From IMG/VR virus record IMGVR_UViG_2609459844_000009, positions 1 to 14,206 of that record: DNA of 14,206 nucleotides. The stretch is one strand, 5' to 3'. The notes beneath the pieces were generated by a model. It worked only from the letters and a program-made list of their open reading frames with translations. It did no database searches and was not told the DNA's origin. Shown in pieces: positions 1 through 14,206 of the stretch. This DNA is from a virus. Lineage: Duplodnaviria > Heunggongvirae > Uroviricota > Caudoviricetes. Position 1 is the stretch's first letter. The number at the start of each line of letters is the position of its first letter. The translations under genes and the position numbers were made by a program.

Positions 1-1155
1 ATGCTCACCGTTAAGCAGATTGAAGCAGCAAAGCCGAAAGAAAAACCATACCGCCTTCTCGATGGTAATGGCCTGTACCTTTATGTTCCTGTATCCGGGA
101 AAAAGGTATGGCAGCTTCGCTACAAGATTGACGGTAAGGAGAAAATCCTGACCGTCGGAAAATATCCGCTAATGACTTTGCAGGAGGCAAGAGATAAAGC
201 ATGGACCGCGAGGAAAGACATCTCGGTTGGCATCGATCCGGTAAAAGCGAAAAAGGCTTCGTCTAACAACAATTCCTTTAGTGCGATTTACAAGGAATGG
301 TACGAGCACAAGAAGCAAGTCTGGTCAGTAGGCTATGCAAACGAACTTGCCAAAATGTTTGACGACGACATTTTACCCATCATCGGCGGCCTTGAAATTC
401 AGGATATTGAGCCGATGCAACTGCTGGAAGTAATCCGCAGATTTGAAGATCGCGGTGCAATGGAGCGAGCCAACAAAGCCCGCAGAAGATGCGGAGAGGT
501 TTTCCGTTACGCTATTGTCACCGGAAGGGCTAAATATAACCCGGCACCTGACCTTGCAGACGCCATGAAAGGATACCGCAAGAAGAACTTCCCGTTTCTT
601 CCTGCAGACCAGATCCCGGCATTCAACAAAGCACTGGCAACATTTTCAGGAAGTATCGTATCGCTTATTGCGACTAAAGTTTTACGCTACACCGCCCTAA
701 GAACGAAAGAACTTCGTTCCATGCTATGGAAGAACGTCGATTTTGAAAACAGGATTATCACCATCGACGCCAGTGTGATGAAGGGTCGCAAGATTCATGT
801 AGTACCGATGTCAGACCAGGTAGTTGAACTTCTCACTACGCTAAGCTCAATCACCAAACCAGTATCAGAGTTTGTTTTTGCCGGGCGCAACGATAAGAAG
901 AAGCCAATCTGCGAGAACGCGGTGCTACTTGTGATCAAACAAATCGGCTATGAGGGTCTGGAAAGCGGTCACGGATTCAGGCATGAATTCAGCACGATTA
1001 TGAACGAGCACGAATGGCCTGCTGATGCTATTGAAGTGCAACTGGCACATGCCAACGGCGGATCTGTGCGCGGGATTTACAACCATGCTCAGTATCTCGA
1101 TAAACGCAGAGAAATGATGCAGTGGTGGGCGGACTGGATTGATGAAAAGGCGTGA
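1..1155 (+). CDS. intS: Tyrosine recombinase, P4-family prophage integrase (IntS-like, argW-targeting)
   Basis: 384-aa ORF starting at window position 1. N-terminal arm-binding region (KQIEAAKPKEKPYRLLDGNGLYLYV) typical of P4-type integrases; C-terminal catalytic signature HGFRHEF ... LAH ... RGIYNHAQY. Recalled as near-identical to E. coli KplE1/CPS-53 IntS. A TorI-like excisionase lies at the opposite end of the element, as in KplE1. Confidence 0.9.
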   Translation: MLTVKQIEAAKPKEKPYRLLDGNGLYLYVPVSGKKVWQLRYKIDGKEKILTVGKYPLMTLQEARDKAWTARKDISVGIDPVKAKKASSNNNSFSAIYKEWYEHKKQVWSVGYANELAKMFDDDILPIIGGLEIQDIEPMQLLEVIRRFEDRGAMERANKARRRCGEVFRYAIVTGRAKYNPAPDLADAMKGYRKKNFPFLPADQIPAFNKALATFSGSIVSLIATKVLRYTALRTKELRSMLWKNVDFENRIITIDASVMKGRKIHVVPMSDQVVELLTTLSSITKPVSEFVFAGRNDKKKPICENAVLLVIKQIGYEGLESGHGFRHEFSTIMNEHEWPADAIEVQLAHANGGSVRGIYNHAQYLDKRREMMQWWADWIDEKA

Positions 1156-1244
1156 TGCTTTCCATCTTTCCATTCGGATTCCTCCTACCAGATTTACCTG
1201 GAGAGTGATATAGTTAATCTTTTAAAAAGTTACATGGGCTTTGC

Positions 1245-3080
1245 ATGTCTTCTAAATTTAGGAATGATATTAATGGGCTAAGGGCTCTAGCGGTCGCAGC
1301 TGTTATTATATATCACTTTAATAGCTCTTATATGTCAAGCGGATTTGCAGGAGTGGATGTTTTTTTTGTTATCTCTGGATACCTGATGACATCCATAATA
1401 GTTAATAAATTCAATGATGGTAATTTCAAGCTTTTTGATTTCTACCTATCCAGAGCAAAAAGAATCATACCATCATTAATAATAGTCTGCTTTGCTCTGT
1501 TGATTTTTGGTTTTTTATTAATAGAACCTGGTACTTATCAGCTAATAGGTAAGCATTCGGCAAGCTCTCTTACATTCATATCAAACTTTACCTATCTATT
1601 TGAATCTGGATATTTCGACCAATCATCCAAAGAAAAGTTTTTGCTGCACACTTGGTCACTATCTGTTGAGTGGCAGTTCTACTTGATTTATCCATTTATA
1701 ATAATATCAATTTCTAAGCTGTTTGGCATAACAAGGCTGCGAGCGGCGCTAGCGTCTCTATCGGTGATTGGATTTATAATTTCTTTAATTATATCAAAAG
1801 AAGATATATCTTTATCTTACTATATGTTTTTTAGCAGAGCATGGGAGATGATAGTAGGTGGAGTTATTTTCTTGCTTCCATCAATAATGACGCAGACAAA
1901 GAGACTGACTTTAGAAATAATAGGGTGCATTGGTATAATATTATCATTTTTTGTTTTTACTGAACAAACGTTATGGCCGGGGACTCCAACTCTAATGCCT
2001 GTAATGTTCACTGCATTGGTTATATATGCTAATAATGAAAAATCAATTCTATCTGCAAGGCCAATTCAATTAATCGGTAAGATATCATATTCTATATACT
2101 TGGTGCATTGGGTAATATTAGTATCATTAAAAAAACTGTATATAGACTTTGGGTTTGCTGCATACCTGATATCAACATTAATGCTATCTTTTGCATTATA
2201 TCACTTTGTTGAAAAAAGGCGTAGCTTTGGGAAAATATGGGTTTATTTGTATGTTTTATGTTTTCTCATTTCGCTGGCCGTCTCCTTGAATGGAGTCAGA
2301 TCGCGAACAAGTGGGTCAGATGATTACAGAATGAGCCTTCAGGAGTTCAGAGACAAGTACGAAGGAAGTGATGGAGTAAAGGATAGCCTCAAACCTATCT
2401 TCTTCAACTCTAACGAAGATGACTTTGAATATATATTAATTGGAAGTAGCCATGCAAAGCACTATTACTCATATATAAAATCAAAAGGTTTGAAAGTGGT
2501 GTCGCTTGCGCTTGATGGGTGTAACTCAACAAAAAACAGGTATACCAACTACCGTCCGGAATCATGCGCCCCTCGCTATGATCAAGTGGTAAAATTCATC
2601 AATGACCATCCTGGCAAAAAGGTAGTTTGGGCTACTTTGTGGACTTGGGTTGGGATCCCTAGAGATAGCTCCAAAAATAATAATGAGAGTACTCTAGATG
2701 TGATAAATGAAGAAGTAACTGCATTTATAGGTGACATTAATAAATCAAATAGTGACATTTATCTTATAGGTGACGTTCCGGGCACTAAGAAACTAACATT
2801 TGAATGCATGGCTAAAAATTCGCTGCCTTTGAATAGATATTTCAATTTGGGCGGATGCAGTGACAAGCAAAAGTATGAGGACGATGGTGTTGATGCAACA
2901 CTATCATCCATAGCTAGAAAATATGATAACGTTCACTTTATAGGGGCTGCAAACTCCTTGTGCTCATCAGGTGAATGCATGTTGATATCTGAAGGTAAAC
3001 CAATTTATACAGATTATGGTCACCTTTCAAAATATGGTGCAAATATAGTCGGAAAGTATATATTCAGTAAAGTTAATTAA
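1245..3080 (+). CDS. O-antigen O-acyltransferase, acyltransferase-3 (AT3) membrane domain fused to C-terminal SGNH domain (OafA/Oac-like)
   Basis: 611-aa ORF. N-terminal AT3 hallmarks (GLRALAVAAVIIYHF with conserved Arg and His; VDVFFVISGY) and many predicted TM helices; C-terminal SGNH-like motifs (ILIGSSHAKHY; DYGHLS near the end). Very AT-rich versus neighbours, no strong SD. Occupies the slot where KplE1 carries gtrABC-like genes and Sf6 carries oac. Confidence 0.85.
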   Translation: MSSKFRNDINGLRALAVAAVIIYHFNSSYMSSGFAGVDVFFVISGYLMTSIIVNKFNDGNFKLFDFYLSRAKRIIPSLIIVCFALLIFGFLLIEPGTYQLIGKHSASSLTFISNFTYLFESGYFDQSSKEKFLLHTWSLSVEWQFYLIYPFIIISISKLFGITRLRAALASLSVIGFIISLIISKEDISLSYYMFFSRAWEMIVGGVIFLLPSIMTQTKRLTLEIIGCIGIILSFFVFTEQTLWPGTPTLMPVMFTALVIYANNEKSILSARPIQLIGKISYSIYLVHWVILVSLKKLYIDFGFAAYLISTLMLSFALYHFVEKRRSFGKIWVYLYVLCFLISLAVSLNGVRSRTSGSDDYRMSLQEFRDKYEGSDGVKDSLKPIFFNSNEDDFEYILIGSSHAKHYYSYIKSKGLKVVSLALDGCNSTKNRYTNYRPESCAPRYDQVVKFINDHPGKKVVWATLWTWVGIPRDSSKNNNESTLDVINEEVTAFIGDINKSNSDIYLIGDVPGTKKLTFECMAKNSLPLNRYFNLGGCSDKQKYEDDGVDATLSSIARKYDNVHFIGAANSLCSSGECMLISEGKPIYTDYGHLSKYGANIVGKYIFSKVN

Positions 3081-3087
3081 ACCAAGA

Positions 3088-3114
3088 CCCCTCAATCCTG
3101 AGGGGCTTTTTTTT
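3088..3114. terminator. Bidirectional rho-independent terminator between convergent acyltransferase and tailspike genes
   Basis: Hairpin CCCCTCA-atcc-TGAGGGG followed by T8 on the + strand; the tailspike stop codon overlaps the T tract on the other strand. Confidence 0.8.
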
Positions 3115-5347
3115 ACGCGGTTAATATCCAGCGCTTATCATAATAATGCATTAATCCTTGTGATGTTATTTTCATATGCACGATTGCTTGAGAAAAAGCG
3201 GCGGCAGCAAAACTTACCCTAAGAAATGTTTGTGAGCCGTTATTGTATTTAGATGTGGTAATGCCGGTTAGGTTTTTACTTCCAGCAATCATATTTGACC
3301 AAACATTACTTGAAGCTAAAGTGGCTTGATCTTTTGCTGATACGCTTACCAATATAACTCCACCGGTCTCACCAGTTCCGCCCAATCCATTCTGATTAAT
3401 TGGCATAATCTTTAACTCTGCTGCGATAAAACCCCCCCCCGTATATGAAGCTTCTTCACCAATCGTTGAAATAAGAATATCAATATTTCTTCCATATGGT
3501 ACCAAAACCGTCGCATCTTCAGTTAATACCTGAGTGTATGTGGCGTTTTTAGCTTGGTGTTTAGCGGAAAGAACCACACCATCAGAACCAGTTCGAAAGC
3601 CGATTCCAGTATGTTCCCCGTAGTATTTACCGTAATAATTTATTCCTCTGACGTCAAATTCTGAAATAGCACTTCCGGTTGTGTTTTTTACGAAAATGAA
3701 CTTATCACCGAAGGTGAAACCTCGGCACTGATATTTATTCGTTGGATCGGCAATGTTTTTAAGAAAGGAAATTCCCTTATAGGCTTTAACGTACCCACTT
3801 TCGAAACGAAAGTTCACAGGACCCTTTTGTTCATTTGCTGGTAATTCAACAAAATGAGTAACCGTGGCTCCGCTAGGGTCCTGAATCCAGCAGGAAATGT
3901 TCTCAACGGTTGCAACTGATTGGCCGTCCTCTTCATTGTAATCTGCAAAATCAAGAGCGTGCGTACCATTTATCCCTTCGATACCCATACCTTTGATAGA
4001 AAGAGAGCGGAATCCATAGAACTTATGAGGTAAAGAACAACCATCTGCAGCAATATTATTTACGGCAACGTACATTAATGGCCCCGGAGCCTTTACAGGT
4101 TCATAGGTTTCTCTATCAATCACAGCCCCCCAAAGATAACCAACACCACATTGCGAAGACCAAATTGCAGAGACATCAGTACTTGTTCCCCATATTGCAA
4201 ATCCGTATGTGCAATCATACATAAAAATATTTTGTATGACGCTGACAAATGGACACGATGGGAGCGCAAATTTATAATGGTAGAAGTCTATATTAGTTAG
4301 CTTCCAGTTCTTTCCGCCACCATACGTGGTGCTAGGACCACTTAGCAAAAGTGGACACCCTGTATATTCAGAGTCAGCGTTTCTGAAACCAATATTTTCA
4401 ATATGTAAATTATGACCCCATGAGGACATGTAAAAACCGCCATTTCCTGACGTATAAATCAAACTCTGCCTCGGGTTATCACCCTTAATATTTAAGGTGA
4501 TGCCTTCCCATCTAAACTGGCTAATGTCAATTTGAGTGTTACCAATATATATAGGCTGGTCTATAAAAATAGGAAGTTTAGTTAGATAAGCTTTATTAAG
4601 TGCTAATCCATCATTTGTTACACCTGTTAAATCGACGCCACCCATGCTTGGCGCTTTTGGGTAAGGCGTTCCCTGAATAGTACTTCCATCAATATAAGGA
4701 GCATCCATCCACGCTCCAAACATACGTGGTGTTACGTACCCCTTACCTTGAAGATCACGTTTCCAGCGTTTACCACCCACAGTGACAATGACCATGCCGT
4801 TATCATCTGCAGAAGTAGAATCTGTGAAATCGGCCACAAACAGACCACCACCAGTATCGCCTGATACTGTCGGCTTCATGCCTGTGGTGTGGAAGTCGAC
4901 GAAAATCTTTTGCTGATCTCGCTCAGGCTCAATTGTCCTTAACATTGCTATATCAGGGCATGTCCCGATGTATTTAAGACCGTCTTCCCCTGATAGAGAT
5001 ACTTTAAGCTGATCAGGATCATATTTAAGAACATTCGGAAAATAGAACTGCTGTGCACCATATGCATCATAAACAGCCATAGAATGGCCTTGCACAGTTA
5101 CGAATTTAGCAATCTGCCCATTATATACCGGATATCCAGCGGCGTTAATGATGATTGGTTGCGAAACAGGAATGTGAGAGCCATCTTCGTTCTCCACATA
5201 AACCTGAATCTGGTTTTCAGGATTTACCGGGTCAGTGTCAATTTTACCGATATAAATTTTGCCATTGGCTACGGCTTTAAAAGAACGAGCCATAGTGAAG
5301 AGTTGCGATGGCATACTCACTACAACATTGGCTGTAATGTCTGTCAT
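3113..5347 (-). CDS. Tailspike protein: P22 gp9-like N-terminal head-binding domain with divergent receptor-binding/enzymatic body
   Basis: 744-aa ORF. First ~110 residues ([11 protein letters not shown] ... [33 protein letters not shown] ... [12 protein letters not shown] ... NVLKYDPDQ) closely match the recalled P22 gp9 head-binding domain; the rest is unrelated to P22 gp9 by eye and Gly/Thr/Asn-rich as expected for a beta-helix. SD GGAG ~9 nt upstream of ATG. Confidence 0.85.
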
Positions 5348-5483
5348 TTAATTTGCTCCAGATGCAAGGAATCGCCGCAGCATGGCTACGGTTGGTATTT
5401 GTTTGGTTTTTGAACTACGAAAATTTCGTAGTGCTATCCATCAAGGCCATCGCCGCTTAGTTGCTGCGGTGAATTTTGGGCAT

Positions 5484-5506
5484 AAAAAAACCCAGCCGAA
5501 GCTGGG
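5484..5506 (-). terminator. Rho-independent terminator downstream of ant (minus strand)
   Basis: On the minus strand: CCCAGC-ttcg-GCTGGG followed by T7. Lies between the ant stop and the tailspike start, like the terminator after ant in the P22 immI operon. Confidence 0.75.
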
Positions 5507-5525
5507 TCGTTGCGTTGGTTATCTG

Positions 5526-6428
5526 TCAGTAGTTATGTACTGAAGGAGGTAATTCTTTATTCTTAAGTCTCATCCATGCGGAAAGATTCGTTGGTCCGTC
5601 TGGCTCATTGATATCAACATCTCGTGAGTGATTGATTAAAACGTCTCTCGCTATATCGATAATACGGGAGAACTCATAACCGCAGTCATGACATCTGCCG
5701 GAATAGTTCGATTGAATTTGTTTCAGCGCCGGATACAGTTCGCGGAATAATGCCTGTGAACGGTTAGCATAATCCCATAGCCATACAAGGCTGTTTGCTT
5801 CTTTTTCAGAAAGCTCGTTGGTTTTCTTCTCTTGTTTGCCGATGAACTCGCCTTCAAGCACTACCCTGTGGATGTACTCTACGGCTTGCGGTATCTGAGA
5901 TGCATCAAGCTCTTCAATACTTTCCACATTGAAACGCTGATGAATCATTGCATAAGCTTCTGGGTACATTAGATGCTTTTTGCTGACCAGCATATTTACA
6001 GCATCACGAAGCGGAGTCCTGTCATCAACAGATGTTTTCTTACGTGCATTTTCTGCCTTTCCCTTTGTCCAGTAGTCATGCAGCACAGTAAAGCATTCTT
6101 CCTGGTACTGAATCAGTTTATCGCGGATGTCAGCACGAACTTTCTCAGGGTTGATGCTGAACAGCCATCCATTTAACTTCTTCAAAGGAAGGCAGAGTAG
6201 CTTACGAAGCTTACCATCAGCGGCAACCATATTCATATGAATACAGTTGAACTTATCTAGTTGTTTCATAAGTTTTTGTTGCTGAGTACCCCAGCTCATT
6301 CCGAGGTTTTCAACGATTGGCTTCATCGCAACATATGCAACTCCGGCAGCCATGGCGGTGATAATCTGCTGACCATTGAAAGGCACGTAAGAGGTGTTCA
6401 CTGCTTCTAAAATTGCTATACTATTCAT
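5526..6428 (-). CDS. ant: Antirepressor Ant (P22 immI-type)
   Basis: Start chosen at the internal ATG ([22 protein letters not shown]...) preceded by GGAGA; 300 aa, the length of P22 Ant. Position (arc ... ant, then tailspike, same strand) matches P22 immI. The ORF-track start at 6458 is a TTG without an SD. Confidence 0.8.
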
Positions 6429-6490
6429 GTTGGTTTTTCTCCAAGGATTTACCGACAACCGAAGCCCTGACTGTTACCGCAGTTGGGGCT

Positions 6491-6760
6491 TCAACGTTTT
6501 TCCACTTCATTTTGAATTTGCTTAAGTAGCATATTTGTCTCGTCAAGCCTCTTGTTAATACGGTCAAGGCTTTCTACTAAATCGTTATGTGCATGTGATA
6601 CTTCGTAATTTGAGACTGATTTCTTTTCCTCTATCGTCTTTGTCAATCGTTCCCCTGATTGATACATATTGATTAACGATGTAAAAATCACGAGCAAGCA
6701 AACTACAATGATTGCGCCAGACAAAAATTGTAAAGAACGATCAAGCAATGACACCTTCAT
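6491..6760 (-). CDS. Small membrane-anchored coiled-coil protein, function unknown (inserted between arc and ant)
   Basis: 89 aa with one N-terminal hydrophobic helix (LQFLSGAIIVVCLLVIFTSLI) then a charged helical region. Start ATG overlaps the arc stop (ATGA) and is preceded by GAGGGG, indicating translational coupling to arc. P22 has no gene at this position as far as I recall. Confidence 0.65.
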   Translation of the reverse strand: MKVSLLDRSLQFLSGAIIVVCLLVIFTSLINMYQSGERLTKTIEEKKSVSNYEVSHAHNDLVESLDRINKRLDETNMLLKQIQNEVEKR

Positions 6761-6909
6761 ACCGTAATCCCCTCTCTCTTCAGACTGTCCAGCAATCGCT
6801 TAATCACTTCCGAGTTAAACGACCGGCATTCTTCTTTGGCCTTTCCTGTAATCGCATCTTTTAGCGACTGAGGCATTCTCACCAAAATTCTGCTAACTTC
6901 TTTTTCCAT
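6757..6909 (-). CDS. arc: Arc-like ribbon-helix-helix repressor
   Basis: 50 aa from the internal ATG (MEKEVSRILVRMPQSLKDAITGKAKEECRSFNSEVIKRLLDSLKREGITV); aligns with recalled P22 Arc (RxPxxLxDxxxxxAxEExRSxNSE ... KxEG). Divergent from mnt. Confidence 0.8.
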   Translation of the reverse strand: MEKEVSRILVRMPQSLKDAITGKAKEECRSFNSEVIKRLLDSLKREGITV

Positions 6910-7018
6910 ATCGCCACCACGTGAGTTATTGTGAATCACAAACATATCACCGTGACTATATCAAGTCAAAATTTTTTTGAATACACTGTGATATCAATGT
7001 GATTATCACGGTGTAAGT
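6910..7018. promoter_or_regulatory. immI divergent promoter/operator region between arc and mnt
   Basis: Contains CACGTG (6917-6922), TGTGAATCACA (6930-6940), ATCACCGTGAC (6946-6956) and its inverted partner ATCACGGTGTA (7005-7015), and the perfect palindrome TGATATCA (6988-6995). The CACCGTG/CACGGTG core resembles the centre of the recalled P22 Mnt operator (CCACGGTGG). Confidence 0.6.
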
Positions 7019-7273
7019 ATGACGAAGGTTAGAGACATAGCCCCATATAGCGTAAGAATGCCAGATAGCCTCAAGCGCGACCTGACCATAAGAGCATCGA
7101 AAAACGGACGCTCATTAAATTCAGAAATAGTTATGATCTTGCAAGCTGCTATTGATGAAGAAAAATCACCAAGATCAATAGAAGGTTTTGCTCAACAAGA
7201 ATCTGAAAAATTTAGGGAGGCTCTTCTTAAGACTCTCAGCAGCATGTACGGAGAAGATAAAAAACCCACCTGA
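7019..7273 (+). CDS. mnt: Mnt-like ribbon-helix-helix repressor
   Basis: 84 aa; N-terminal RMPDSLKRDLTIRASKNGRSLNSEIV matches the recalled P22 Mnt RHH motif (RMPxxxxxxLxxRAxxNGRSxNSE). Divergent from arc. Confidence 0.8.
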   Translation: MTKVRDIAPYSVRMPDSLKRDLTIRASKNGRSLNSEIVMILQAAIDEEKSPRSIEGFAQQESEKFREALLKTLSSMYGEDKKPT

Positions 7274-7285
7274 CGGTGGGTTTTT
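7259..7285. terminator. Bidirectional rho-independent terminator shared by mnt and the convergent 330-aa gene
   Basis: A6 - CCCACC-tgac-GGTGGG - T5; the mnt stop codon lies in the loop and the stop of the minus-strand gene (7287) abuts the T tract. Confidence 0.8.
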
Positions 7286-7286
7286 C

Positions 7287-8279
7287 TTATTCTTTATCTT
7301 TTAAGTCTATGGTTCTTTGCCCAATAACCTTTTCATCTATGTATTTCTCATACTCTTCTCGAGTATCAGAAACCATTGCAATACCAGTAACCTTACCTAT
7401 TTGGGTTCTAAGAGCCTTAACTCCAACCTCTGATAAAAACTGGTGTATTTTATCGTTTTTGCTGCCTTTCTCTTCTTTTGAAGTTTTTGCTAAATTAAAT
7501 ACCTTTCCTTCACTTCTGGCTAATGGGTAATAAATGTGATCTATCGTAAGATATTTAAACGCCCATGGTCGCCCTCTAACTGGTTTGTCTATACCATACA
7601 AACGATACCAATGCTCATAAAGTTCAGGGGTGAACTCTCTTTCATACTCACGAGCCTCTTCAGCAACATATCGCTTATATGCTTGAATTACCTCTTCTTT
7701 TGTTCTGTCATACCCTGCCAAAGCATAAACAAGCCCCTGAATGCCCGCCTTGGCTGATGCATCAATAATGATTCTGGCTTGCTTAGCAATCCCTTCCTGA
7801 CTGGAAAGCAACTTACCTTCAGCTTTAGCATTAGAGATTGCTCGACATAAATCAATTAATATTGTTACATCGTAGCCATGTATTACAGGATTAGCTGGAG
7901 TGTTCGTGCCCGCCTGTTTGTATTGAAAAATAAGAGGATTTTCAAGTTTTGCCCTTAATTCATGCCCAATATACTGAGAAATAGTTTTCCCCTGAATAAA
8001 CTTTGGCAACCTGCTGCCACCTTCGCCAAGACCAATCGCTTCTCCCATGCCTCTCTGGCTAATAACGGCAGTTTTGTTATCATCATTTAACACATAGCAC
8101 TCAACATCAATCCCGAATTCATGCTGGAACGATCCCTTATGCGTGGCAATTAATGGTTTATCCTTCCATCTTGCAGCCGCTGCTTTCTTTGCTATTTCAG
8201 AACGCTGCTCTTTAGTCAGCGACTTTGCGCGAGCGATCCCGCCCTTAGCTTTCCCTTCACTACTTTTCTTTTCTGTCAT
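7287..8279 (-). CDS. Hypothetical protein with Lys/Ala-rich basic N-terminal tail; unknown function, possible DNA-binding regulator or exclusion/defence factor
   Basis: 330-aa ORF (MTEKKSSEGKAKGGIARAKSLTKEQRSEIAKKAAAARWKDK...). AGGTG ~9 nt upstream of ATG; TTGCTT-18 bp-TATAAT sigma70-like promoter on the minus strand (+ strand 8312-8341). AT-rich relative to early genes. I could not assign a family; there is a vague resemblance to phage Bro-N/P63C-type regions that I cannot substantiate. Confidence 0.75.
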   Translation of the reverse strand: MTEKKSSEGKAKGGIARAKSLTKEQRSEIAKKAAAARWKDKPLIATHKGSFQHEFGIDVECYVLNDDNKTAVISQRGMGEAIGLGEGGSRLPKFIQGKTISQYIGHELRAKLENPLIFQYKQAGTNTPANPVIHGYDVTILIDLCRAISNAKAEGKLLSSQEGIAKQARIIIDASAKAGIQGLVYALAGYDRTKEEVIQAYKRYVAEEAREYEREFTPELYEHWYRLYGIDKPVRGRPWAFKYLTIDHIYYPLARSEGKVFNLAKTSKEEKGSKNDKIHQFLSEVGVKALRTQIGKVTGIAMVSDTREEYEKYIDEKVIGQRTIDLKDKE

Positions 8280-8434
8280 AATGCAAGCACCTTGTTGTGA
8301 TATATGCTTGCATTATATACACTGTACACACATACAAGCAAGCATAAAAACAAAACAAAATGCTTGCATTACAACCGCGCTACTCCAACTACACATTATC
8401 ATCTGGTATCCTGCACAAAACTAAGGAGGTTGGT
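8280..8434. promoter_or_regulatory. Divergent promoter region with four copies of the 10-bp palindrome ATGC(AA/TT)GCAT (putative operator array)
   Basis: Sites at 8281-8290 (ATGCAAGCAc), 8304-8313 (ATGCTTGCAT), 8336-8345 (AAGCAAGCAT) and 8360-8369 (ATGCTTGCAT); centre-to-centre spacings ~23, 32 and 24 bp. They overlap the RBS/start, -10 and -35 of the 330-aa gene's predicted promoter. Confidence 0.6.
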
Positions 8435-8764
8435 GTGCTTGAATGGTTTCTGTTGGCTGCATTAGTCGTTTCTGGTTTGGTGTATGAGTATCGAATGCAC
8501 TCTCTAACAAAAAAAATAGGAATTCTAGAAAACGAATATTGTGCTCTCAAATCCTCACTGGAACGTGAGCAAGGGGACTTAAAAATCTCTCTGTCTAGCA
8601 TTGAGCGTTCTATAGAGAGCTTAGAGGATAAGGTTGATCGTATAAAGAATGAGGATATTCATGATATTAAGGACGACATATCCTTCTTAAAATCTTGGTT
8701 GAAAAATGTTGGGAAAATTGCCACATCAACACGAGATAAGCTCAATCCATCCATGGATGACTAA
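8435..8764 (+). CDS. Small membrane-anchored coiled-coil protein, function unknown
   Basis: GTG start 5 nt after a perfect AGGAGG SD (8424-8429); ~109 aa with N-terminal hydrophobic helix (LEWFLLAALVVSGLVY) then a charged heptad-like helical region. AT-rich. The upstream ATG at 8360 lies inside operator site 4 with no SD, so I prefer the GTG. Confidence 0.55.
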   Translation: MLEWFLLAALVVSGLVYEYRMHSLTKKIGILENEYCALKSSLEREQGDLKISLSSIERSIESLEDKVDRIKNEDIHDIKDDISFLKSWLKNVGKIATSTRDKLNPSMDD

Positions 8765-9016
8765 TTACTCCTGTGCCATTCCGCTTAGCGATGCCACAAT
8801 TCCAGCTCTTGCTAAACGCTGGAACTCTTCGTTTCCTAGTGCCTCGCGTATTGCTTTTACGGCGGCCTTATTTGCCATAAATCTGCGTTCCGCCGCCGCT
8901 AATGCACCATCACTTGCCCCAACCTTAACTGCCTTTGTTGCCTCTTGAACAGCCTTTTCAATAGCGTAACGACCGCTTCTAGTTGCGGATAATTTCGCTA
9001 TCGCTCCTTTTGCCAT
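8765..9016 (-). CDS. Ala-rich small ORF, possibly the C-terminal remnant of a larger (late/ejection-type?) gene
   Basis: 83 aa from the first ATG, but the frame stays open upstream to ~9142 with no start codon and no convincing SD, suggesting a 5'-truncated remnant. Its stop codon abuts the stop of the convergent gene at 8764. Confidence 0.3.
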   Translation of the reverse strand: MAKGAIAKLSATRSGRYAIEKAVQEATKAVKVGASDGALAAAERRFMANKAAVKAIREALGNEEFQRLARAGIVASLSGMAQE

Positions 9017-9061
9017 TGCATCAATTGCCCCACCTGCAGCGCCAACGGGCCATACGCGCCA

Positions 9062-9556
9062 GTTATTTCTATTGGGGCAGTATTCTTTGACCCGAATACC
9101 GGAGAAACAGGAGAAGAGTTCTCGGTAAATATCTCGCTTGAGTCATCAATGCGATATCGGGCGCGTCCTGACGCTTCAACGATTTTATGGTGGCTGGAAC
9201 AGAGTGAAGAAGCCAGAAAATCGCTAACCAGCAACACTCAGGAGCTTTCAACGGCTCTTTCATGGTTATCTGAATTCATCATAAAGAACGCTAACCACAA
9301 ATTCGTTCAGGTTTGGGGGAATGGAGCATCATTTGACTGCGTTATTCTCCGCAACAGTTATTCGCTGACAGGGCAGCCAGTTCCGTGGCAGTGGTGGAAT
9401 GACCGCGACGTAAGAACAATCGTCGAACTTGGGAAGGTAATAGGATTCGACCCTAAGCGAGATATGCCATTCAAAGGAACTCGCCACAACGCGCTTGATG
9501 ATGCCATTCACCAAGCCAAATACGTTTCAGCGATCTGGAAAAAGTTAGCTAAATAA
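9062..9556 (+). pseudogene. DnaQ/DEDD-like 3'-5' exonuclease (Rv2179c-like phage exoribonuclease family), 5'-truncated
   Basis: Frame is open from 8903; first ATG at 9149. Translation from ~9062 (VISIGAVFFDPNTGETGEEFSVNI ... WWLEQSEEARKSL ... VQVWGNGASFDCVILRNS ... GTRHNALDDAIHQAKYV) matches this family as I recall it, including the motif III H-x4-D. The expected N-terminal DxE motif (I.D.ET.G) is absent in all three forward frames upstream. Confidence 0.5.
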
Positions 9557-9572
9557 TCAACAGGAGAAAACC

Positions 9573-9866
9573 ATGCCAGCGCCTCTGTATGGTGCGGATG
9601 ACGCGCGCCGCTGTTCCGGCAATTCCGTATCGGAGGTGCTGGATAAATTCAGAAGAAACTACGATCGGATAATGTCGCTACCACAGGAAACGAAAGAGGA
9701 AAAGGAATTTCGCCACTGTATATGGCTTGCAGAGAAAGAAGAACGCGAGCGAATTTACCAGACATCAATCCGACCATTCCGCAAAGCCACATATACCCAC
9801 TTCCCTGAAATTGACCCGCGCCTGCGTAATTACCGCTCACGCTATGGCGCTATCAGTAATGACTGA
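9573..9866 (+). CDS. Hypothetical phage early-region protein
   Basis: 97-aa ORF with GGAGA SD 7 nt upstream of ATG; tightly packed same-strand gene array. Confidence 0.6.
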   Translation: MPAPLYGADDARRCSGNSVSEVLDKFRRNYDRIMSLPQETKEEKEFRHCIWLAEKEERERIYQTSIRPFRKATYTHFPEIDPRLRNYRSRYGAISND

Positions 9867-9876
9867 GGAATTAACA

Positions 9877-10167
9877 ATGAAAACAATGAAGCTAAACATC
9901 GACCTCGGCAAATACGTTATTACCGGAACCAAACACGACCTGATTCTTAATGAAAGAGGAATTATCAAAGAAGGTGAGAATGCAGGGAAAGAAACACTAA
10001 GCCGTATCGGTTATTACAGCAAGTTTGAGCATCTGGTCAAAGAGTTATGCAACCGTGAAATCCTGTTATCTCAGGCGCAGACGCTACAGGATATTCAGCA
10101 GCATATCGAAACTTTAGGTATGTCACTTAGCATGGCTATTGACCAGTTCGTTGAGAGTAAATCATGA
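9877..10167 (+). CDS. Hypothetical phage early-region protein
   Basis: ATG ([13 protein letters not shown]...) 6 nt after GAGGAA, immediately after the upstream stop; the longer ORF-track start at 9727 overlaps the previous gene and is less likely. Confidence 0.6.
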
Positions 10168-10331
10168 GAGGACTTGCATACAATCCCGGCATTCTTCCGG
10201 CAGAAATGATTATTCGCCAACGCGTAAAGCCAATGCCATCGAGAGAGGAATTGCTTAAAAGAAAGAGTTTCGGTTCTGTTAATGACAACAAATATCTGAA
10301 TGCTATGTGGCGCAAAGGAGGCAACCAGTGA
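10164..10331 (+). CDS. Small hypothetical protein (55 aa)
   Basis: ATG overlaps the upstream stop (ATGA) and its own stop overlaps the next gene's GTG start (GTGA), suggesting translational coupling. Below the ORF-track size cutoff. Confidence 0.4.
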
Positions 10332-10582
10332 GTAATTCAGCACGACTACAGCTTGGTTTTTCACCGCTATCAAAAACTATCATGCTGGCAAAAATGCGCG
10401 ATGTTGAAGGTGGACGTATGCGCGTTGGCAATGATCCAGGTCGTGATGTTACCAATGAGGCTGCTCAATTGGTGTGGCGACTGGTCATGGCTGAAGGTGG
10501 TGAGATCGCGCGGGAGCTGGATGATGGTTCTCGCATGGTGTTGAAGGCAGAAAAGCAGGAGGCAACCAGTGAGCCAGATTGA
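10328..10582 (+). CDS. Hypothetical phage early-region protein
   Basis: GTG start 6 nt after AGGAGG; the same 17-nt SD-plus-start block (AGGAGGCAACCAGTGAG) recurs at the start of the next gene. Confidence 0.55.
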
Positions 10583-11012
10583 TTATCAGGCACTGCGTGC
10601 TAAGGCAGAAAAAGCAACGTGTGGCGAGTGGTCGCTCGAATATGGAGAGGGCCGATTTGATGGTGATGATGCGCTAATTCATCGCGAGGCTGCTGGATAT
10701 ATTCCTATTTGCAGAATTGAAGGAGCGCATCCAGAAAGCGGTTTCGATGAAGATTTCCAAATGGAACAGCAGGCCAATGCTGAATTCATCGCCGCAGCCA
10801 ATCCGGCTACCGTGCTGACACTGCTGGACGAGCTGGAAGCAGCAAAAAAGCGCATTGCAGAACTGGAAGCACGGGAAATATCGCTCCCAGAACGTAGCAG
10901 CATGCTTCATCGAACAGATTTTCACGAGGATTACCAAACGGTAATGGCATACAAAGTTTCTGAGGTCATCGCTGCAATCCGCGCCGCTGGCATTCGCATC
11001 AAAGGAGAGTGA
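10569..11012 (+). CDS. Ead/Ea22-like early protein
   Basis: 147 aa; GTG start after AGGAGG. Contains the AANPATVL.LLDELEAA...RIAELE segment that I recall as characteristic of Ead/Ea22-like proteins of lambdoid and P22-like prophages. Confidence 0.55.
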   Translation: MSQIDYQALRAKAEKATCGEWSLEYGEGRFDGDDALIHREAAGYIPICRIEGAHPESGFDEDFQMEQQANAEFIAAANPATVLTLLDELEAAKKRIAELEAREISLPERSSMLHRTDFHEDYQTVMAYKVSEVIAAIRAAGIRIKGE

Positions 11013-11013
11013 G

Positions 11014-11205
11014 ATGAACGGACAAATCTCAATTGTTCGACCGGGAGCATGTGACGATCGCGAGATACGAATGATTATTCGTCTGGCGATGGGGAAAACA
11101 ATAACAGCTCTCATTACTCCAGAAAATCTCGCATTAGCTTTAACCGGAAAGTCAGACCTGCCAGTGGAGCTAAAACTGCGAAATGTTGAGATTAAGGTGA
11201 AATAG
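11014..11205 (+). CDS. Small hypothetical protein (63 aa)
   Basis: ATG 1 nt after the upstream stop; fills the gap in the same-strand operon. Confidence 0.45.
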   Translation: MNGQISIVRPGACDDREIRMIIRLAMGKTITALITPENLALALTGKSDLPVELKLRNVEIKVK

Positions 11206-11207
11206 CC

Positions 11208-11822
11208 ATGACCACTATTACCAAAGAACGTATTGAATTGTTCATTAAAGATCCGCTTGAAAACGGGCTTACTCGTGGCGAACAAATGGAACTGGCACGA
11301 ATTGCACTGGCATCACTGGAACGCGAACAGATTCGCCACGAGCATGCCAAATGGTCTGACTCCACATTTGGCTGCGTTGGCCCCATTGGTCCGCTGAAAC
11401 ATCTCTCAAAAGAGGCTCTGGAAGCCGCAGCCGAACCTGACGATCTCAGCGAGTGGGCTGATATGCAGTTCCTGTTGTGGGATGCACAGCGCCGTGCTGG
11501 TATCAGTGATGCTGAAATTACCGCTGCTATGGAAGATAAATTGAAGATCAACATGAAGCGCCAGTGGCCTGAACCAAAAGATGGTGAGCCTCGCTTGCAC
11601 ATTAAAGAACCCGGCAACTCTCCGGTAACTCCGGATGGTTGGATAAGCTGTAGTGAGCGAATGCCAAGCGAAGAAGATGTTTTGGTTTATTGCTCAGACA
11701 CAAAAGAGCAGATGGTAGGGTTTCACAAAGGTAAAGGGTTATTTCAATTCTTTTACATGAATGGTGTTGAGGGGGTATGTGAGCCGTCACACTGGATGCC
11801 GCTACCAGAGCCTCCACTTTGA
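11208..11822 (+). CDS. DUF550/DUF551-type prophage protein (MazG-like dATP/dGTP pyrophosphohydrolase-type N-terminal region, DUF551 C-terminus)
   Basis: 204 aa; the C-terminus (...CEPSHWMPLPEPPL) matches the recalled DUF551 ending (HWMPLPEPP); the N-terminal region resembles the DUF550 module often fused to it. Confidence 0.5.
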   Translation: MTTITKERIELFIKDPLENGLTRGEQMELARIALASLEREQIRHEHAKWSDSTFGCVGPIGPLKHLSKEALEAAAEPDDLSEWADMQFLLWDAQRRAGISDAEITAAMEDKLKINMKRQWPEPKDGEPRLHIKEPGNSPVTPDGWISCSERMPSEEDVLVYCSDTKEQMVGFHKGKGLFQFFYMNGVEGVCEPSHWMPLPEPPL

Positions 11823-11919
11823 AAGCGAAGCTTATACATATCTTTTACATCAGCAATCTATTGTTAATCTCCAATCAATGTTACGTTGTCATCTCACTCA
11901 TGCTTTGGAGGTAGTGATA

Positions 11920-12098
11920 TGTCTTGTCCAAAATGCGGTTCTGGAAATATTGCAAAAGAAAAAACAATGCGTGGATGGTCTGGTGATTATGTGTGCTGCG
12001 ATTGCGGATACAACGACTCTAAAGACGCATTTGGAGAGCGTGGTAAAAACGAGTTTGTTAAAATTAATAAAGAACGCGAAGGCAACGAAAAAAGCTAA
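11920..12098 (+). CDS. Small zinc-ribbon protein
   Basis: 59 aa from the ATG 7 nt after GGAGG (MSCPKCGSGNIAKEK ... CCDCGYND): two Cys pairs in C-x2-C ... C-x-C arrangement. The longer track ORF (11886) lacks an SD. Confidence 0.55.
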
Positions 12099-12163
12099 TT
12101 TATTTATTCATATATTAAAACAATGTAACCAATATTCGAATTGAAGAACTGAAAGAACACCAA

Positions 12164-12184
12164 GCCGCCTGATGGCGGTTTTTT
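12164..12184 (+). terminator. Rho-independent terminator ending the early-gene array
   Basis: GCCGCC-tgat-GGCGG followed by T6. Confidence 0.7.
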
Positions 12185-12194
12185 ATTGCCTGAT

Positions 12195-12210
12195 TTGCAG
12201 GTTCGATTCC
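12195..12210 (+). other. tRNA-Arg (argW) T-arm-derived 16-nt fragment just upstream of torI
   Basis: TTGCAGGTTCGATTCC matches the T-stem/T-loop part of E. coli argW as I recall it (...AATTGCAGGTTCGATTCCTGCAGGGGACACCA); similarity ends at 12211. Confidence 0.5.
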
Positions 12211-12229
12211 CTATTCGGAGATAGCACTC

Positions 12230-12430
12230 ATGCAACACGAACTACAACCTGATTCACTGGTTGATTTGAAATTCATCATGGCTGATACTGGCTTCGGTAA
12301 GACCTTCATCTATGACCGGATTAAGTCCGGCGACCTGCCAAAAGCCAAAGTTATCCACGGGCGAGCAAGATGGTTATATCGTGACCATTGTGAATTCAAA
12401 AATAAGCTCTTAAGCCGCGCCAATGGGTAA
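12230..12430 (+). CDS. torI: Excisionase / recombination directionality factor, TorI-like (AlpA/Xis family winged-helix)
   Basis: 66 aa (MQHELQPDSLVDLKFIMADTGFGKTFIYDRIKSGDLPKAKVIHGRARWLYRDHCEFKNKLLSRANG), recalled as matching KplE1 TorI. It sits at the opposite end of the prophage from int and next to the att remnant, as in KplE1. Confidence 0.8.
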   Translation: MQHELQPDSLVDLKFIMADTGFGKTFIYDRIKSGDLPKAKVIHGRARWLYRDHCEFKNKLLSRANG

Positions 12431-12503
12431 AATAGCGGGTAAAATATTTCTCACATCTAAAAAACACCATTCCAATCAATCCCCTGCTGCTTCAAGTAGA
12501 TGT

Positions 12504-12518
12504 CTGCAGGGGACACCA
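12504..12518 (+). other. argW 3'-terminal fragment (…CTGCAGGGGACACCA): candidate attR core / right prophage boundary
   Basis: Exact 15-nt match to the recalled 3' end of tRNA-Arg argW including the CCA end, with no upstream tRNA body; non-coding host-like DNA follows. Confidence 0.6.
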
Positions 12519-12958
12519 GATACCCTTCAAACGAAATCTACCTTCACCCCGTAAAAGATAGGTTTGGCAGCACACTTGCCTTATATCTACTCATTTTTAC
12601 TGCAACAGGTTGAAATCTCAGCACTGTCAGAAAGCGCTGATGACTAAACAGCCCTGGGCCGGGCGATGTAACCATCACACAGAATCCTGATAGCGAAATA
12701 TGGCGTGACTCGATACTTCACTCCGCAATGCATTCCTTGATGAATTCGCAGGACCGTGATACACGGGACAGGTCGCTGAATGACGACAATGTCCTGGAAA
12801 TCAGCGAACCGCGCATCTGAAGTACATTTGAGCGACTGTACCAGAACATGAATGAGGCGTTTGGATTAGGTGATTATTAGCAGGGCTAAGCACTTTAGTA
12901 TTATTATTTTCCGGTTGAGGGATAGGGAGATATCGACAACAACCGGAAAAGTTTACGT

Positions 12959-14206
12959 CTATATTGCTGAAGGTACAGGCGTTTCCATAACTATTTGCTC
13001 GCGTTTTTTACTCAAGAAGAAAATGCCAAATAGCAACATCAGGCAGACAATACCCGAAATTGCGAAGAAAACTGTCTGGTAGCCTGCGTGGTCAAAGAGT
13101 ATCCCAGTCGGCGTTGAAAGCAGCACAATCCCAAGCGAACTGGCAATTTGAAAACCAATCAGAAAGATCGTCGACGACAGGCGCTTATCAAAATTTGCCA
13201 CGCTGTATTTGAAGACGGATATGACACAAAGTGGAACCTCAATAGCATGTAACAGCTTCACTAATGAAATAATCCAGGGGTTAACGAACAGCGCGCAGGA
13301 AAGGATACGCAACGCCATAATCACAACACCGATAAGTAATGCATTTTTTGGCCCTACCCGATTCACAAAGAAAGGAATAATCGCCATGCATAGCGCTTCG
13401 AGTACCACCTGGAATGAGTTGAGATAACCATACAGGCGCGTTCCTACATCGTGTGATTCGAATAAACCTGCATAAAAGACAGGAAAAAGTTGTTGATCAA
13501 AAATGTTATAGAAAGACCACGTCCCCACAATAAATATGACGAAAACCCAGAAGTTTCGATCCTTGAAAACTGCGATAAAATCCTCTTTTTTTACCCCTCC
13601 CGCATCCGCCGCTACGCACTGGTGATCCTTATCTTTAAAACACATGTTGATCATCATAAATACAGCGCCAAATAGCGAGACCAACCAGAAGTTGATATGG
13701 GGACTGATACTAAAAAATATGCCGGCAAAGAACGCGCCAATAGCATAGCCAAAAGATCCCCAGGCGCGCGCTGTTCCATATTCGAAATGAAAATTTCGCG
13801 CCATTTTTTCGGTGAAGCTGTCAAGCAAACCGCATCCCGCCAGATACCCCAGGCCAAAAAAGAGCGCCCCCAGAATTAGACCTACAGAAAAATTGCTTTG
13901 CAGTAACGGTTCATAAACGTAAATCATAAACGGTCCGGTCAAGACCAGGATGAAACTCATACACCAGATGAGCGGTTTCTTCAGACCGAGTTTATCCTGA
14001 ACGATGCCGTAGAACATCATAAATAGAATGCTGGTAAACTGGTTGACCGAATAAAGTGTACCTAATTCCGTCCCTGTCAACCCTAGATGTCCTTTCAGCC
14101 AAATAGCGTATAACGACCACCACAGCGACCAGGAAATAAAAAAGAGAAATGAGTAACTGGATGCAAAACGATAGTACGCATTTCTGAATGGAATATTCAG
14201 TGCCAT
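12959..14206 (-). CDS. cscB: Sucrose:H+ symporter, LacY-family MFS permease (CscB)
   Basis: 415-aa ORF with 12-TM MFS architecture; N-terminus (MALNIPFRNAYYRFASSYSFLFFISWSLWWSLYAIWLKGHLGL) recalled as E. coli CscB. The csc locus is known to lie next to argW in sucrose-positive E. coli. The window ends exactly at its start codon. Confidence 0.85.
   Translation of the reverse strand: MALNIPFRNAYYRFASSYSFLFFISWSLWWSLYAIWLKGHLGLTGTELGTLYSVNQFTSILFMMFYGIVQDKLGLKKPLIWCMSFILVLTGPFMIYVYEPLLQSNFSVGLILGALFFGLGYLAGCGLLDSFTEKMARNFHFEYGTARAWGSFGYAIGAFFAGIFFSISPHINFWLVSLFGAVFMMINMCFKDKDHQCVAADAGGVKKEDFIAVFKDRNFWVFVIFIVGTWSFYNIFDQQLFPVFYAGLFESHDVGTRLYGYLNSFQVVLEALCMAIIPFFVNRVGPKNALLIGVVIMALRILSCALFVNPWIISLVKLLHAIEVPLCVISVFKYSVANFDKRLSSTIFLIGFQIASSLGIVLLSTPTGILFDHAGYQTVFFAISGIVCLMLLFGIFFLSKKREQIVMETPVPSAI

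Follow-up and report, generated by a model that had tools for sequence, protein, structure and literature searches.

The window analyzed here is a 14,206-nucleotide (nt) stretch of Caudoviricetes DNA, positions 1 to 14,206 of the IMG/VR record IMGVR_UViG_2609459844_000009, and our subject is an open reading frame (ORF) of 89 codons that lies on its minus strand within an immI locus. The locus is a complete P22-type immI unit, comprising mnt, a Pant-like promoter, arc, ant and the antisense RNA sar, and the ORF occupies the interval between arc and the sar terminator. The features of the locus, numbered from the first letter of the window, are the following.

5489-5508, minus strand: terminator-like hairpin 3' of ant (sequence scan)
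5526-6428, minus strand: ant antirepressor, 300 amino acids (aa) from the ATG at 6428 (P22_AR_N 152.2 bits, P22_AR_C 98.2 bits)
6429-6496, plus strand: sar antisense RNA (RF00262, 93.6 bits against a gathering score of 43, E = 3.4e-20)
6491-6760, minus strand: the 89-aa ORF, phrog_27312 family, a cargo cassette between arc and the sar terminator (ATG start, TGA stop)
6757-6760, minus strand: ATGA, the ORF start codon on the arc stop (read from the sequence)
6769-6774, minus strand: GAGGGG Shine-Dalgarno (SD) sequence, 8 nt 5' of the ORF ATG
6757-6909, minus strand: arc, 50 aa, Arc/RHH (PF03869, 42.6 bits against a cutoff of 20.4, with the ORF at 6757-6945 scored)
6941-6969, minus strand: Pant-like promoter, TTGACT, 17-nt spacer and TATGTT with a TG extension (consensus match only)
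7019-7273, plus strand: divergent mnt-like repressor gene (PF03869, 35.8 bits; phrog_2685, E = 9.6e-38)

The 89 codons are uninterrupted. The ORF ATG is the reverse complement of 6758-6760 and the arc TGA is that of 6757-6759, and the GAGGGG sequence falls within the arc codons R-E-G; both the overlap and the SD sequence, proposed in a first-pass annotation made from the sequence alone, are borne out by direct reading. At the other end, the ORF stop TGA (6491-6493) falls at the base of the stem of the sar terminator (6461-6492, with a T-tract that continues to ~6501), the last three codons (E-K-R) are complementary to this T-tract, and a gap of 62 nt separates the end of the ORF from the start of ant. 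The arc start was placed most likely at the ATG at 6909 rather than at 6945, because the -10 element of the Pant-like promoter ends at 6941 and because RefSeq and phage EC.P3 annotate the 50-aa form.

All canonical immI parts are alike in order and orientation in the window, P22 and epsilon34, and the ribosome-binding site (RBS) context of ant is the same as in P22. DNA identity across ant and sar is ~85% to P22 and ~95% to epsilon34, and homology to both phages, which consists of ant and sar, ends at window position 6498/6499, right at the ORF stop. The statement in the first-pass annotation that P22 has no gene between arc and ant therefore stands: in P22 and epsilon34 the hairpin follows 6 nt after the end of arc and no gene intervenes, whereas the window has a 270-nt ORF there. 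The arc C-terminus reads ...LKREGITV in the window and ...KKEGRIGA in P22, and it is the window variant that carries the SD sequence and the overlapping start. The GAGGGG sequence is kept in every cassette-bearing arc allele and is missing from P22-type arc.

Comparison of homologous sequences established that the 89-codon ORF is a genuine protein-coding gene, since its frame, its start overlap, an indel of one heptad and a ratio of non-synonymous to synonymous substitution rates (dN/dS) below 1 are kept across diverged homologues. The phrog_27312 profile matches the whole protein (residues 1-89 of 89, E = 6.5e-61), and the family is thus already catalogued as hypothetical. The exact 89-aa protein is found on at least 1000 Escherichia coli and Salmonella contigs, where its database annotation is always hypothetical, bar a few spurious automated names ('YoxC', 'MtrG'); the gene was found in 14 of 5,426 complete E. 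coli genomes and is carried by two isolated phages, EC.P3 and S.Kent 1-2-1. An exhaustive phmmer search of 1.84 billion cluster representatives returned one real distant relative only, and a scan of species-representative genomes found no relative. With phmmer and a profile search together, three 83-aa relatives of 40-49% identity were recovered (P0009, P0011 from Serratia marcescens, and P0012), and a distant 83-aa homologue also matches phrog_27312 (E = 4.8e-19). All three genes have an Arc-family gene on one side and a P22_AR_N antirepressor gene on the other, and they share the 4-nt overlap; independent gene predictions agree with this arrangement. The 89-aa and 83-aa classes are separated by an in-frame indel of 7 codons, exactly one heptad, which is placed just upstream of the coiled coil and leaves its register intact, and dN/dS is 0.28-0.56 between diverged pairs. 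A full-length copy at the same position and with the 4-nt overlap (ATGA, or GTGA in one case) was present in 30/30 family loci fetched, some contigs being counted twice.

The first-pass annotation had described the product as an 89-aa single-transmembrane (TM) coiled-coil protein, and three measures agree with it. There is one strongly hydrophobic segment, with a mean of 2.79 for the best 19-residue Kyte-Doolittle window (residues 12-30); the AlphaFold2 model is a single continuous helix over residues 3-88, with a mean predicted local distance difference test score of 90; and hydrophobic residues are spaced regularly by 3-4 over residues 61-86. The product is thus predicted to be a ~10-kDa single-pass inner-membrane protein. 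Its layout would run from a short N-terminal tail through a TM segment (residues ~10-32), a juxtamembrane helix that is conserved and a linker that is variable to a leucine-zipper-like coiled coil, with the following parts.

6665-6733, minus strand: TM segment, codons 10-32, with the invariant LSGAIIV motif (hydropathy and homologue alignment)
6620-6664, minus strand: conserved juxtamembrane motif SGERLxxxIE, codons 33-47 (homologue alignment)
6500-6583, minus strand: heptad coiled coil, codons 60-87, poorly conserved in sequence with the heptad core kept (AlphaFold2 and alignment)

Conservation is uneven along this layout. Identity to the three 83-aa homologues is 57-69% over alignment columns 1-51, the TM and juxtamembrane half that holds the invariant LSGAIIV, FT and SG.RL...IE, and 23-26% over columns 52-90, where 8/8 heptad-core positions are hydrophobic in the homologues despite ~25% identity in that half.

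NCBIfam gave no match for the 89-aa protein, PADLOC-DB gave 0 families at E <= 0.1, Pfam gave sub-threshold coiled-coil-type matches only (DUF1664, DUF948, DUF2096_N and DUF4446), and a PDB profile search returned designed coiled coils, chemoreceptors and similar noise only, at E >= 0.03. Foldseek comparison of the single-helix model with BFVD gave 0 matches, a single long helix having no fold information. An N-terminal TM segment followed by a helical coiled coil is a likeness to DUF948/YoxC, DUF1664, i-spanins and FtsB/FtsL. Membership of DUF948 (YoxC) and of DUF1664 was rejected on score (15.9 bits vs 37.2 and 16.5 bits vs 34.6, respectively), and membership of SieA on length (89 aa), on the single hydrophobic segment and on the absence of the FxRYPxEAxxFNK motif. 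A spanin was rejected because no lipobox ORF was seen in other frames or adjacent and the locus is immI, not a lysis cassette, and a cleavable signal peptide because, by sequence inspection, the hydrophobic stretch is overlong at ~22 residues and has no AxA-type site. Relatedness to the small protein encoded at 8435-8764 was also rejected (BLASTP E = 2.7), consistent with the earlier remark that the two lack clear sequence similarity.

Across phages, the ORF is one allele of a cassette slot that sequence comparison reveals to be common to many P22-like phages. The first-pass annotation had presented it as an extra gene inserted into immI; the gene is indeed genuine, and what falls away is the idea of a private insertion, since the position is a polymorphic slot. 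IMG/VR was scanned with an exact sar-terminator pattern, which gave at least 120 loci, and 131 matches to the pattern among the loci compared were analyzed. Of these, 64/131 had an arc ending in ...LKREGxxV followed by a cassette, and 67/131 were without a cassette, having either a P22-type arc (...EGRIGA) or an arc ending at the terminator TGA. At least eight unrelated small-ORF families occupy the slot; the loci counted below are those among the 131 matches listed.

67-aa cassette, CxxC...CxxC: 19 loci (L016 and others)
89-aa cassette, the family of the window protein: 14 loci
57-codon putative ORF with a GTG start: 11 loci
39-nt deletion remnant of the 57-codon ORF: 3 loci
73-aa cassette: 10 loci
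63-aa cassette, CxxC: 2 loci (L006, L027)
80-aa cassette: 2 loci
74-aa cassette, CxxC: 2 loci (L042, L051)
60-aa cassette, ClpX C4 zinc finger (PF06689, 43 bits vs a threshold of 27): 1 locus

The boundaries of the slot are constant. The 5' end of a cassette is always ATGA or GTGA on the arc stop, the 3' end is always the TGA of TGAAGCCCC, and just before this terminal TGA stands an A-rich codon pair, K-[S/Q/R] or E-S. Several of the alternative cassettes are small CxxC...CxxC proteins, and the 60-aa ClpX-zinc-finger cassette was named in IMG/VR loci L047 and L073.

Pairs of genomes illustrate the exchange. Phage vB_EcoP-611R6 encodes an identical Arc protein, followed by an unrelated 73-aa ORF whose start likewise overlaps the arc stop in an ATGA. 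The flanks in this phage match the window at 97.5% identity over 5449-6501 and at 99.6% over 6755-7283, delimiting one exchanged segment.

6502-6754, minus strand: segment exchanged between the window and vB_EcoP-611R6 (flanks conserved, cassette unrelated)

The reciprocal mosaic is seen in the prophage of avian pathogenic E. coli (APEC) E19035, which has only 6458-6818 in common with the window; besides the cassette, this stretch takes in 58 nt of arc together with the sar terminator, and the arc body and ant differ. The 89/83-aa cassette is paired with at least seven Arc and at least six Ant alleles, and between arc alleles the last 40 nt are 72-95% identical and the first 110 nt 39-56%. From these identities, the slot is flanked by the final ~40 nt of arc on one side and by the 35-nt sar terminator on the other, and these flanks are the likely recombination sites.

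Further loci bear traces of exchange. Chimeric Arc proteins, as in L004 4300-4458 (APEC E19035) and similar loci, join a P22-type N-terminal and central part (MKGMSKMPQFNLRWP...) to a slot-type C-terminus (...DSLKREGITV), and thus point to recombination inside the last ~40 nt of arc. Comparison of L010 with L026 showed that the 39-nt remnant fits a deletion of the 57-codon ORF between short direct repeats TTGGATGC, which looks like a cassette loss caught in progress. In CUS-3 (L135, CP000711), positions 2277-2758 are annotated solely as 'bsq2; boundary sequence', with no coding sequence (CDS). Within this interval tblastn located the 67-aa Cys-rich cassette ORF at 100% identity, and comparison to IMG/VR loci also places there sar and a 46-aa Arc allele that the record leaves unannotated. 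The absence of arc from CUS-3, as stated in print, may be an annotation gap.

Variability in this part of the genome has been described before: gene 16 and the tailspike gene bracket a stretch known as the hypervariable 'ant moron' (Villafane et al. 2008, PMC2629481). The cassette shares with the ant moron a presence/absence polymorphism among otherwise syntenic phages, the gene being present in some and absent from others. Classical morons in the Hendrix/Juhala sense have their own promoter and terminator, whereas a consensus scan found neither for the window cassette. The arrangement also resembles the boundary sequences of lambdoid and P22-like phages, in which short conserved sequences flank exchangeable modules, as with 'bsq2' of CUS-3; the CUS-3 record treats the region as non-coding, whereas the comparison made here shows an arc allele and a 67-aa cassette ORF in it. 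We found no description of the arc-sar slot and its cassette series in the searchable literature, only general 'ant moron' variability. What is new here is the precisely bounded series of cassettes, with coupling inferred, the gene itself being a catalogued orphan in a known variable region.

Expression of the ORF was considered from the signals around it. A consensus scan of the locus gave 5 promoter-like sites, compared to 4.6 expected from shuffling, and no above-chance promoter-like site 5' of the ORF besides Pant. A promoter-like site at 6754-6727 on the minus strand was rejected, because it lies inside the ORF and the number of sites equals the shuffled expectation. No terminator was found between arc and the ORF; operon terminators occur only after ant and after mnt, and the sole nearby terminator is that of sar, on the opposite strand. 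From this arrangement we infer co-expression with arc from Pant and translational coupling to arc. Control by sar in the manner of a type I toxin was rejected, since sar overlaps the last 6 nt of the ORF only and not its RBS, the RBS that sar covers being that of ant. As published for P22-like phages, Mnt keeps Pant repressed in lysogens, Arc represses it in the course of an infection, transcription of the late operon runs on through this part of the genome as far as the tailspike gene, and sar prevents translation of ant (PMC2629481, PMC12111858).

We therefore propose, with moderate confidence in the account as a whole, that the ORF is an inner-membrane protein gene in an immI cargo slot, expressed in the Pant burst and with a role in conflict at the envelope. 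The cargo would be made from the Arc mRNA in an Arc-limited burst from Pant, just after DNA entry or loss of Mnt, and a second, late round of synthesis by read-through of the late operon is probable in an intact phage. It would escape the sar antisense control of ant because the ORF lies upstream of the sar target. Recombination within the short conserved sequences on either side would exchange small unrelated genes at the slot. The 89-aa protein would oligomerize via its coiled coil and bind a specific inner-membrane partner via its TM region, which we take as the partner-binding part because the TM and juxtamembrane half is conserved, while the coiled coil keeps its heptad pattern only. Our best guess is that it takes part in a conflict at the level of the envelope, in which the infecting phage is opposed to the host or to resident prophages, and that it serves exclusion or counter-exclusion.

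Several findings weigh against this proposal. First, no characterized homologue was found in Pfam, NCBIfam, PADLOC, PDB or BFVD, and the functional part of the account is for that reason a guess. Second, coupling and timing were read from sequence anatomy. Third, dN/dS is only moderately below 1, and the closest informative pair, with P0003 (locus L128, 91% identical), has 14 differences, 6 synonymous and 8 non-synonymous, and alone is non-significant (binomial P = 0.058). Fourth, a minority of database copies are frameshifted in an A-tract, which yields 60-aa forms (P0005, P0007, P0008). Fifth, the topology is ambiguous, with lysine plus arginine residues flanking the TM segment numbering 2 on the N-side and 4 on the C-side in the window protein and 3 vs 2-4 in the homologues. 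Sixth, the sample of loci is biased, being drawn from the matches listed for an exact sar-terminator pattern. Lastly, the window prophage appears to be reduced by deletion and has kept an intact mnt, and the window copy may therefore be silent. On the fourth point, disruption in relatives had been named in the first-pass annotation as evidence that would speak against the gene; full-length copies dominate, and the frameshifted ones are the minority just mentioned. The frameshifted variants diverge in an A-rich tract at 6617-6631 on the minus strand, codons 44-48, which reads AGGAAAAGAAATCAG. Some relatives have an uninterrupted run of eight A within this tract, and the 60-aa truncated forms retain the conserved TM and juxtamembrane half.

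A more far-reaching account can be built on anti-CRISPR/aca operons, in which diverse small cargo genes sit beside a small autorepressor that silences a strong early promoter after a burst. By analogy, Arc would be the autorepressor at Pant and the arc-sar slot a burst-expression cargo site; the 89-aa protein would be a new membrane counter-defense or exclusion factor and the ClpX-zinc-finger-like cassettes decoys. If this were true, the cassettes would be interchangeable small weapons needed when Ant disarms the repressors of resident prophages, the 89-aa protein might neutralize a membrane-bound abortive-infection effector of a resident prophage, and the decoys formed by the ClpX-zinc-finger-like cassettes would be aimed at host proteolysis adaptors. 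Unlike the arrangement in anti-CRISPR/aca operons, Arc lies upstream of the cargo, and no cassette matches a known anti-defense protein; we regard this extended account as doubtful.

A short tail followed by a TM helix and a leucine zipper resembles the architecture of FtsB and FtsL. The protein might be a host-takeover factor analogous to P1 Icd, a bitopic protein that would interfere with the divisome or with envelope synthesis, for example as an FtsB/FtsL mimic, and conservation of the TM face LSGAIIV hints at a specific partner in the membrane. The P1 icd gene is the nearest organizational precedent, a small accessory gene embedded in an antisense-RNA-regulated antirepressor operon: it encodes 73 aa in an antisense-controlled immI operon with ant and blocks division via FtsZ, acting on host division and not on the immunity circuit (PMC11897509, PMC8201110). 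However, P1 Icd is a soluble alpha/beta protein (PMC11897509), non-homologous when compared by description rather than by sequence, whereas the window protein is predicted to be a TM helix and coiled coil. Moreover, icd is tied to ant expression, whereas the window ORF is tied to arc by overlap and stops 62 nt before ant, to which it is uncoupled. No Pfam match to DivIC/FtsB or another division family was found, and we judge this alternative unlikely.

We also think it quite unlikely that the gene encodes a lysogen-protecting superinfection-exclusion protein like P22 SieA, made in the prophage and blocking DNA entry at the inner membrane. The likeness is that of an inner-membrane protein gene in the same variable 'ant moron' region as P22 sieA, here small, and the window is without a sieA homologue. 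P22 SieA, however, is a 162-aa, three-TM, prophage-expressed protein with the FxRYPxEAxxFNK motif, to which the window protein has no similarity; the latter has one TM segment and would be Pant-dependent. Phage exclusion, which the first-pass annotation suggested testing, fits poorly if it means protection of the lysogen, because Pant is the sole promoter placed to transcribe the ORF and Mnt keeps it shut in lysogens (PMC2629481), and there is no above-chance promoter-like site within arc. The protein also had no PADLOC match.

Less probable still is a cis or trans modulator of the immI circuit, which would tune ant translation, sar pairing or the activity of Arc or Ant. The ORF stop is placed at the foot of the stem of the sar terminator, so terminating ribosomes would open the sar-pairing structure, the final codons complement the 3' end of sar, and P1 icd has been reported to be necessary for ant expression (PMC8201110). 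Yet eight unrelated cassettes and the empty P22-type junctions share this stop-to-hairpin geometry, the P22 arc stop lying merely 6 nt further upstream, and any cis effect would therefore be independent of the 89-aa protein. Nor does a cis effect need a membrane anchor, and the ant RBS context is unchanged from P22.

Finally, a non-functional open frame persisting in recombinational 'boundary sequence' between immI modules, for which one could cite the CUS-3 region (arc allele, 67-aa cassette and sar) annotated 'bsq2' with no CDS, a family without known function and the few frameshifted copies, is highly improbable against a frame kept at 40-49% protein identity across genera, an indel whose length divides by three and, in codons, by seven, conserved hydrophobic and heptad patterns with dN/dS <1, and a start overlap and SD sequence conserved with intact copies in 30/30 fetched loci.

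If the reading of the arc-sar interval as a cargo slot holds, it offers a natural experiment in which at least eight unrelated small proteins are under identical transcriptional and translational control, and cassettes could be swapped in a classic regulatory unit without touching anything else. Through the slot one could then approach what several orphan small proteins do, among them a membrane protein found on at least 1000 E. coli and Salmonella contigs. It also bears on how promoterless cargo genes spread by recombination in very short conserved flanks, and it corrects the annotation of the CUS-3 region recorded as non-coding boundary sequence. Among the cassette products would be free ClpX-zinc-finger-like proteins co-expressed with Ant.

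The prophage in the window looks like the remnant of a deletion. Homology to the gene for a gene-16-type DNA-transfer protein in intact relatives ends at ~9044, with only the last ~280 nt left, in the form of an 83-aa ORF at 8765-9016 on the minus strand. This remnant is joined to early-left genes for an Rv2179c-like exoribonuclease (9149-9556) and the anti-RecBCD protein Abc2 (9573-9866), a block that also has Ead/Ea22 and dATP/dGTP pyrophosphohydrolase-DUF551 genes, and the host gene cscB comes next (12959-14206). No complete E. coli genome covers >=80% of the window. At the opposite end, an integrase gene (1-1155, plus strand) is directly followed by an AT3-SGNH O-acyltransferase gene (1245-3080, plus strand), which is convergent with the tailspike gene (3113-5347, minus strand). 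There is no tRNA gene anywhere in the window, and the attachment site is for that reason not evident. Two further accessory genes belong to the same variable region as the cassette. One, at 8360/8435-8764 on the plus strand, encodes a second small TM-plus-helical protein (phrog_5962) and lies at the hkcB position of epsilon34 and CUS-3; the other, at 7287-8279 on the minus strand, encodes a 330-aa P63C-domain protein (phrog_2384). Other ant morons (L004, L005 and L128) carry YafO-family toxin modules at that place.

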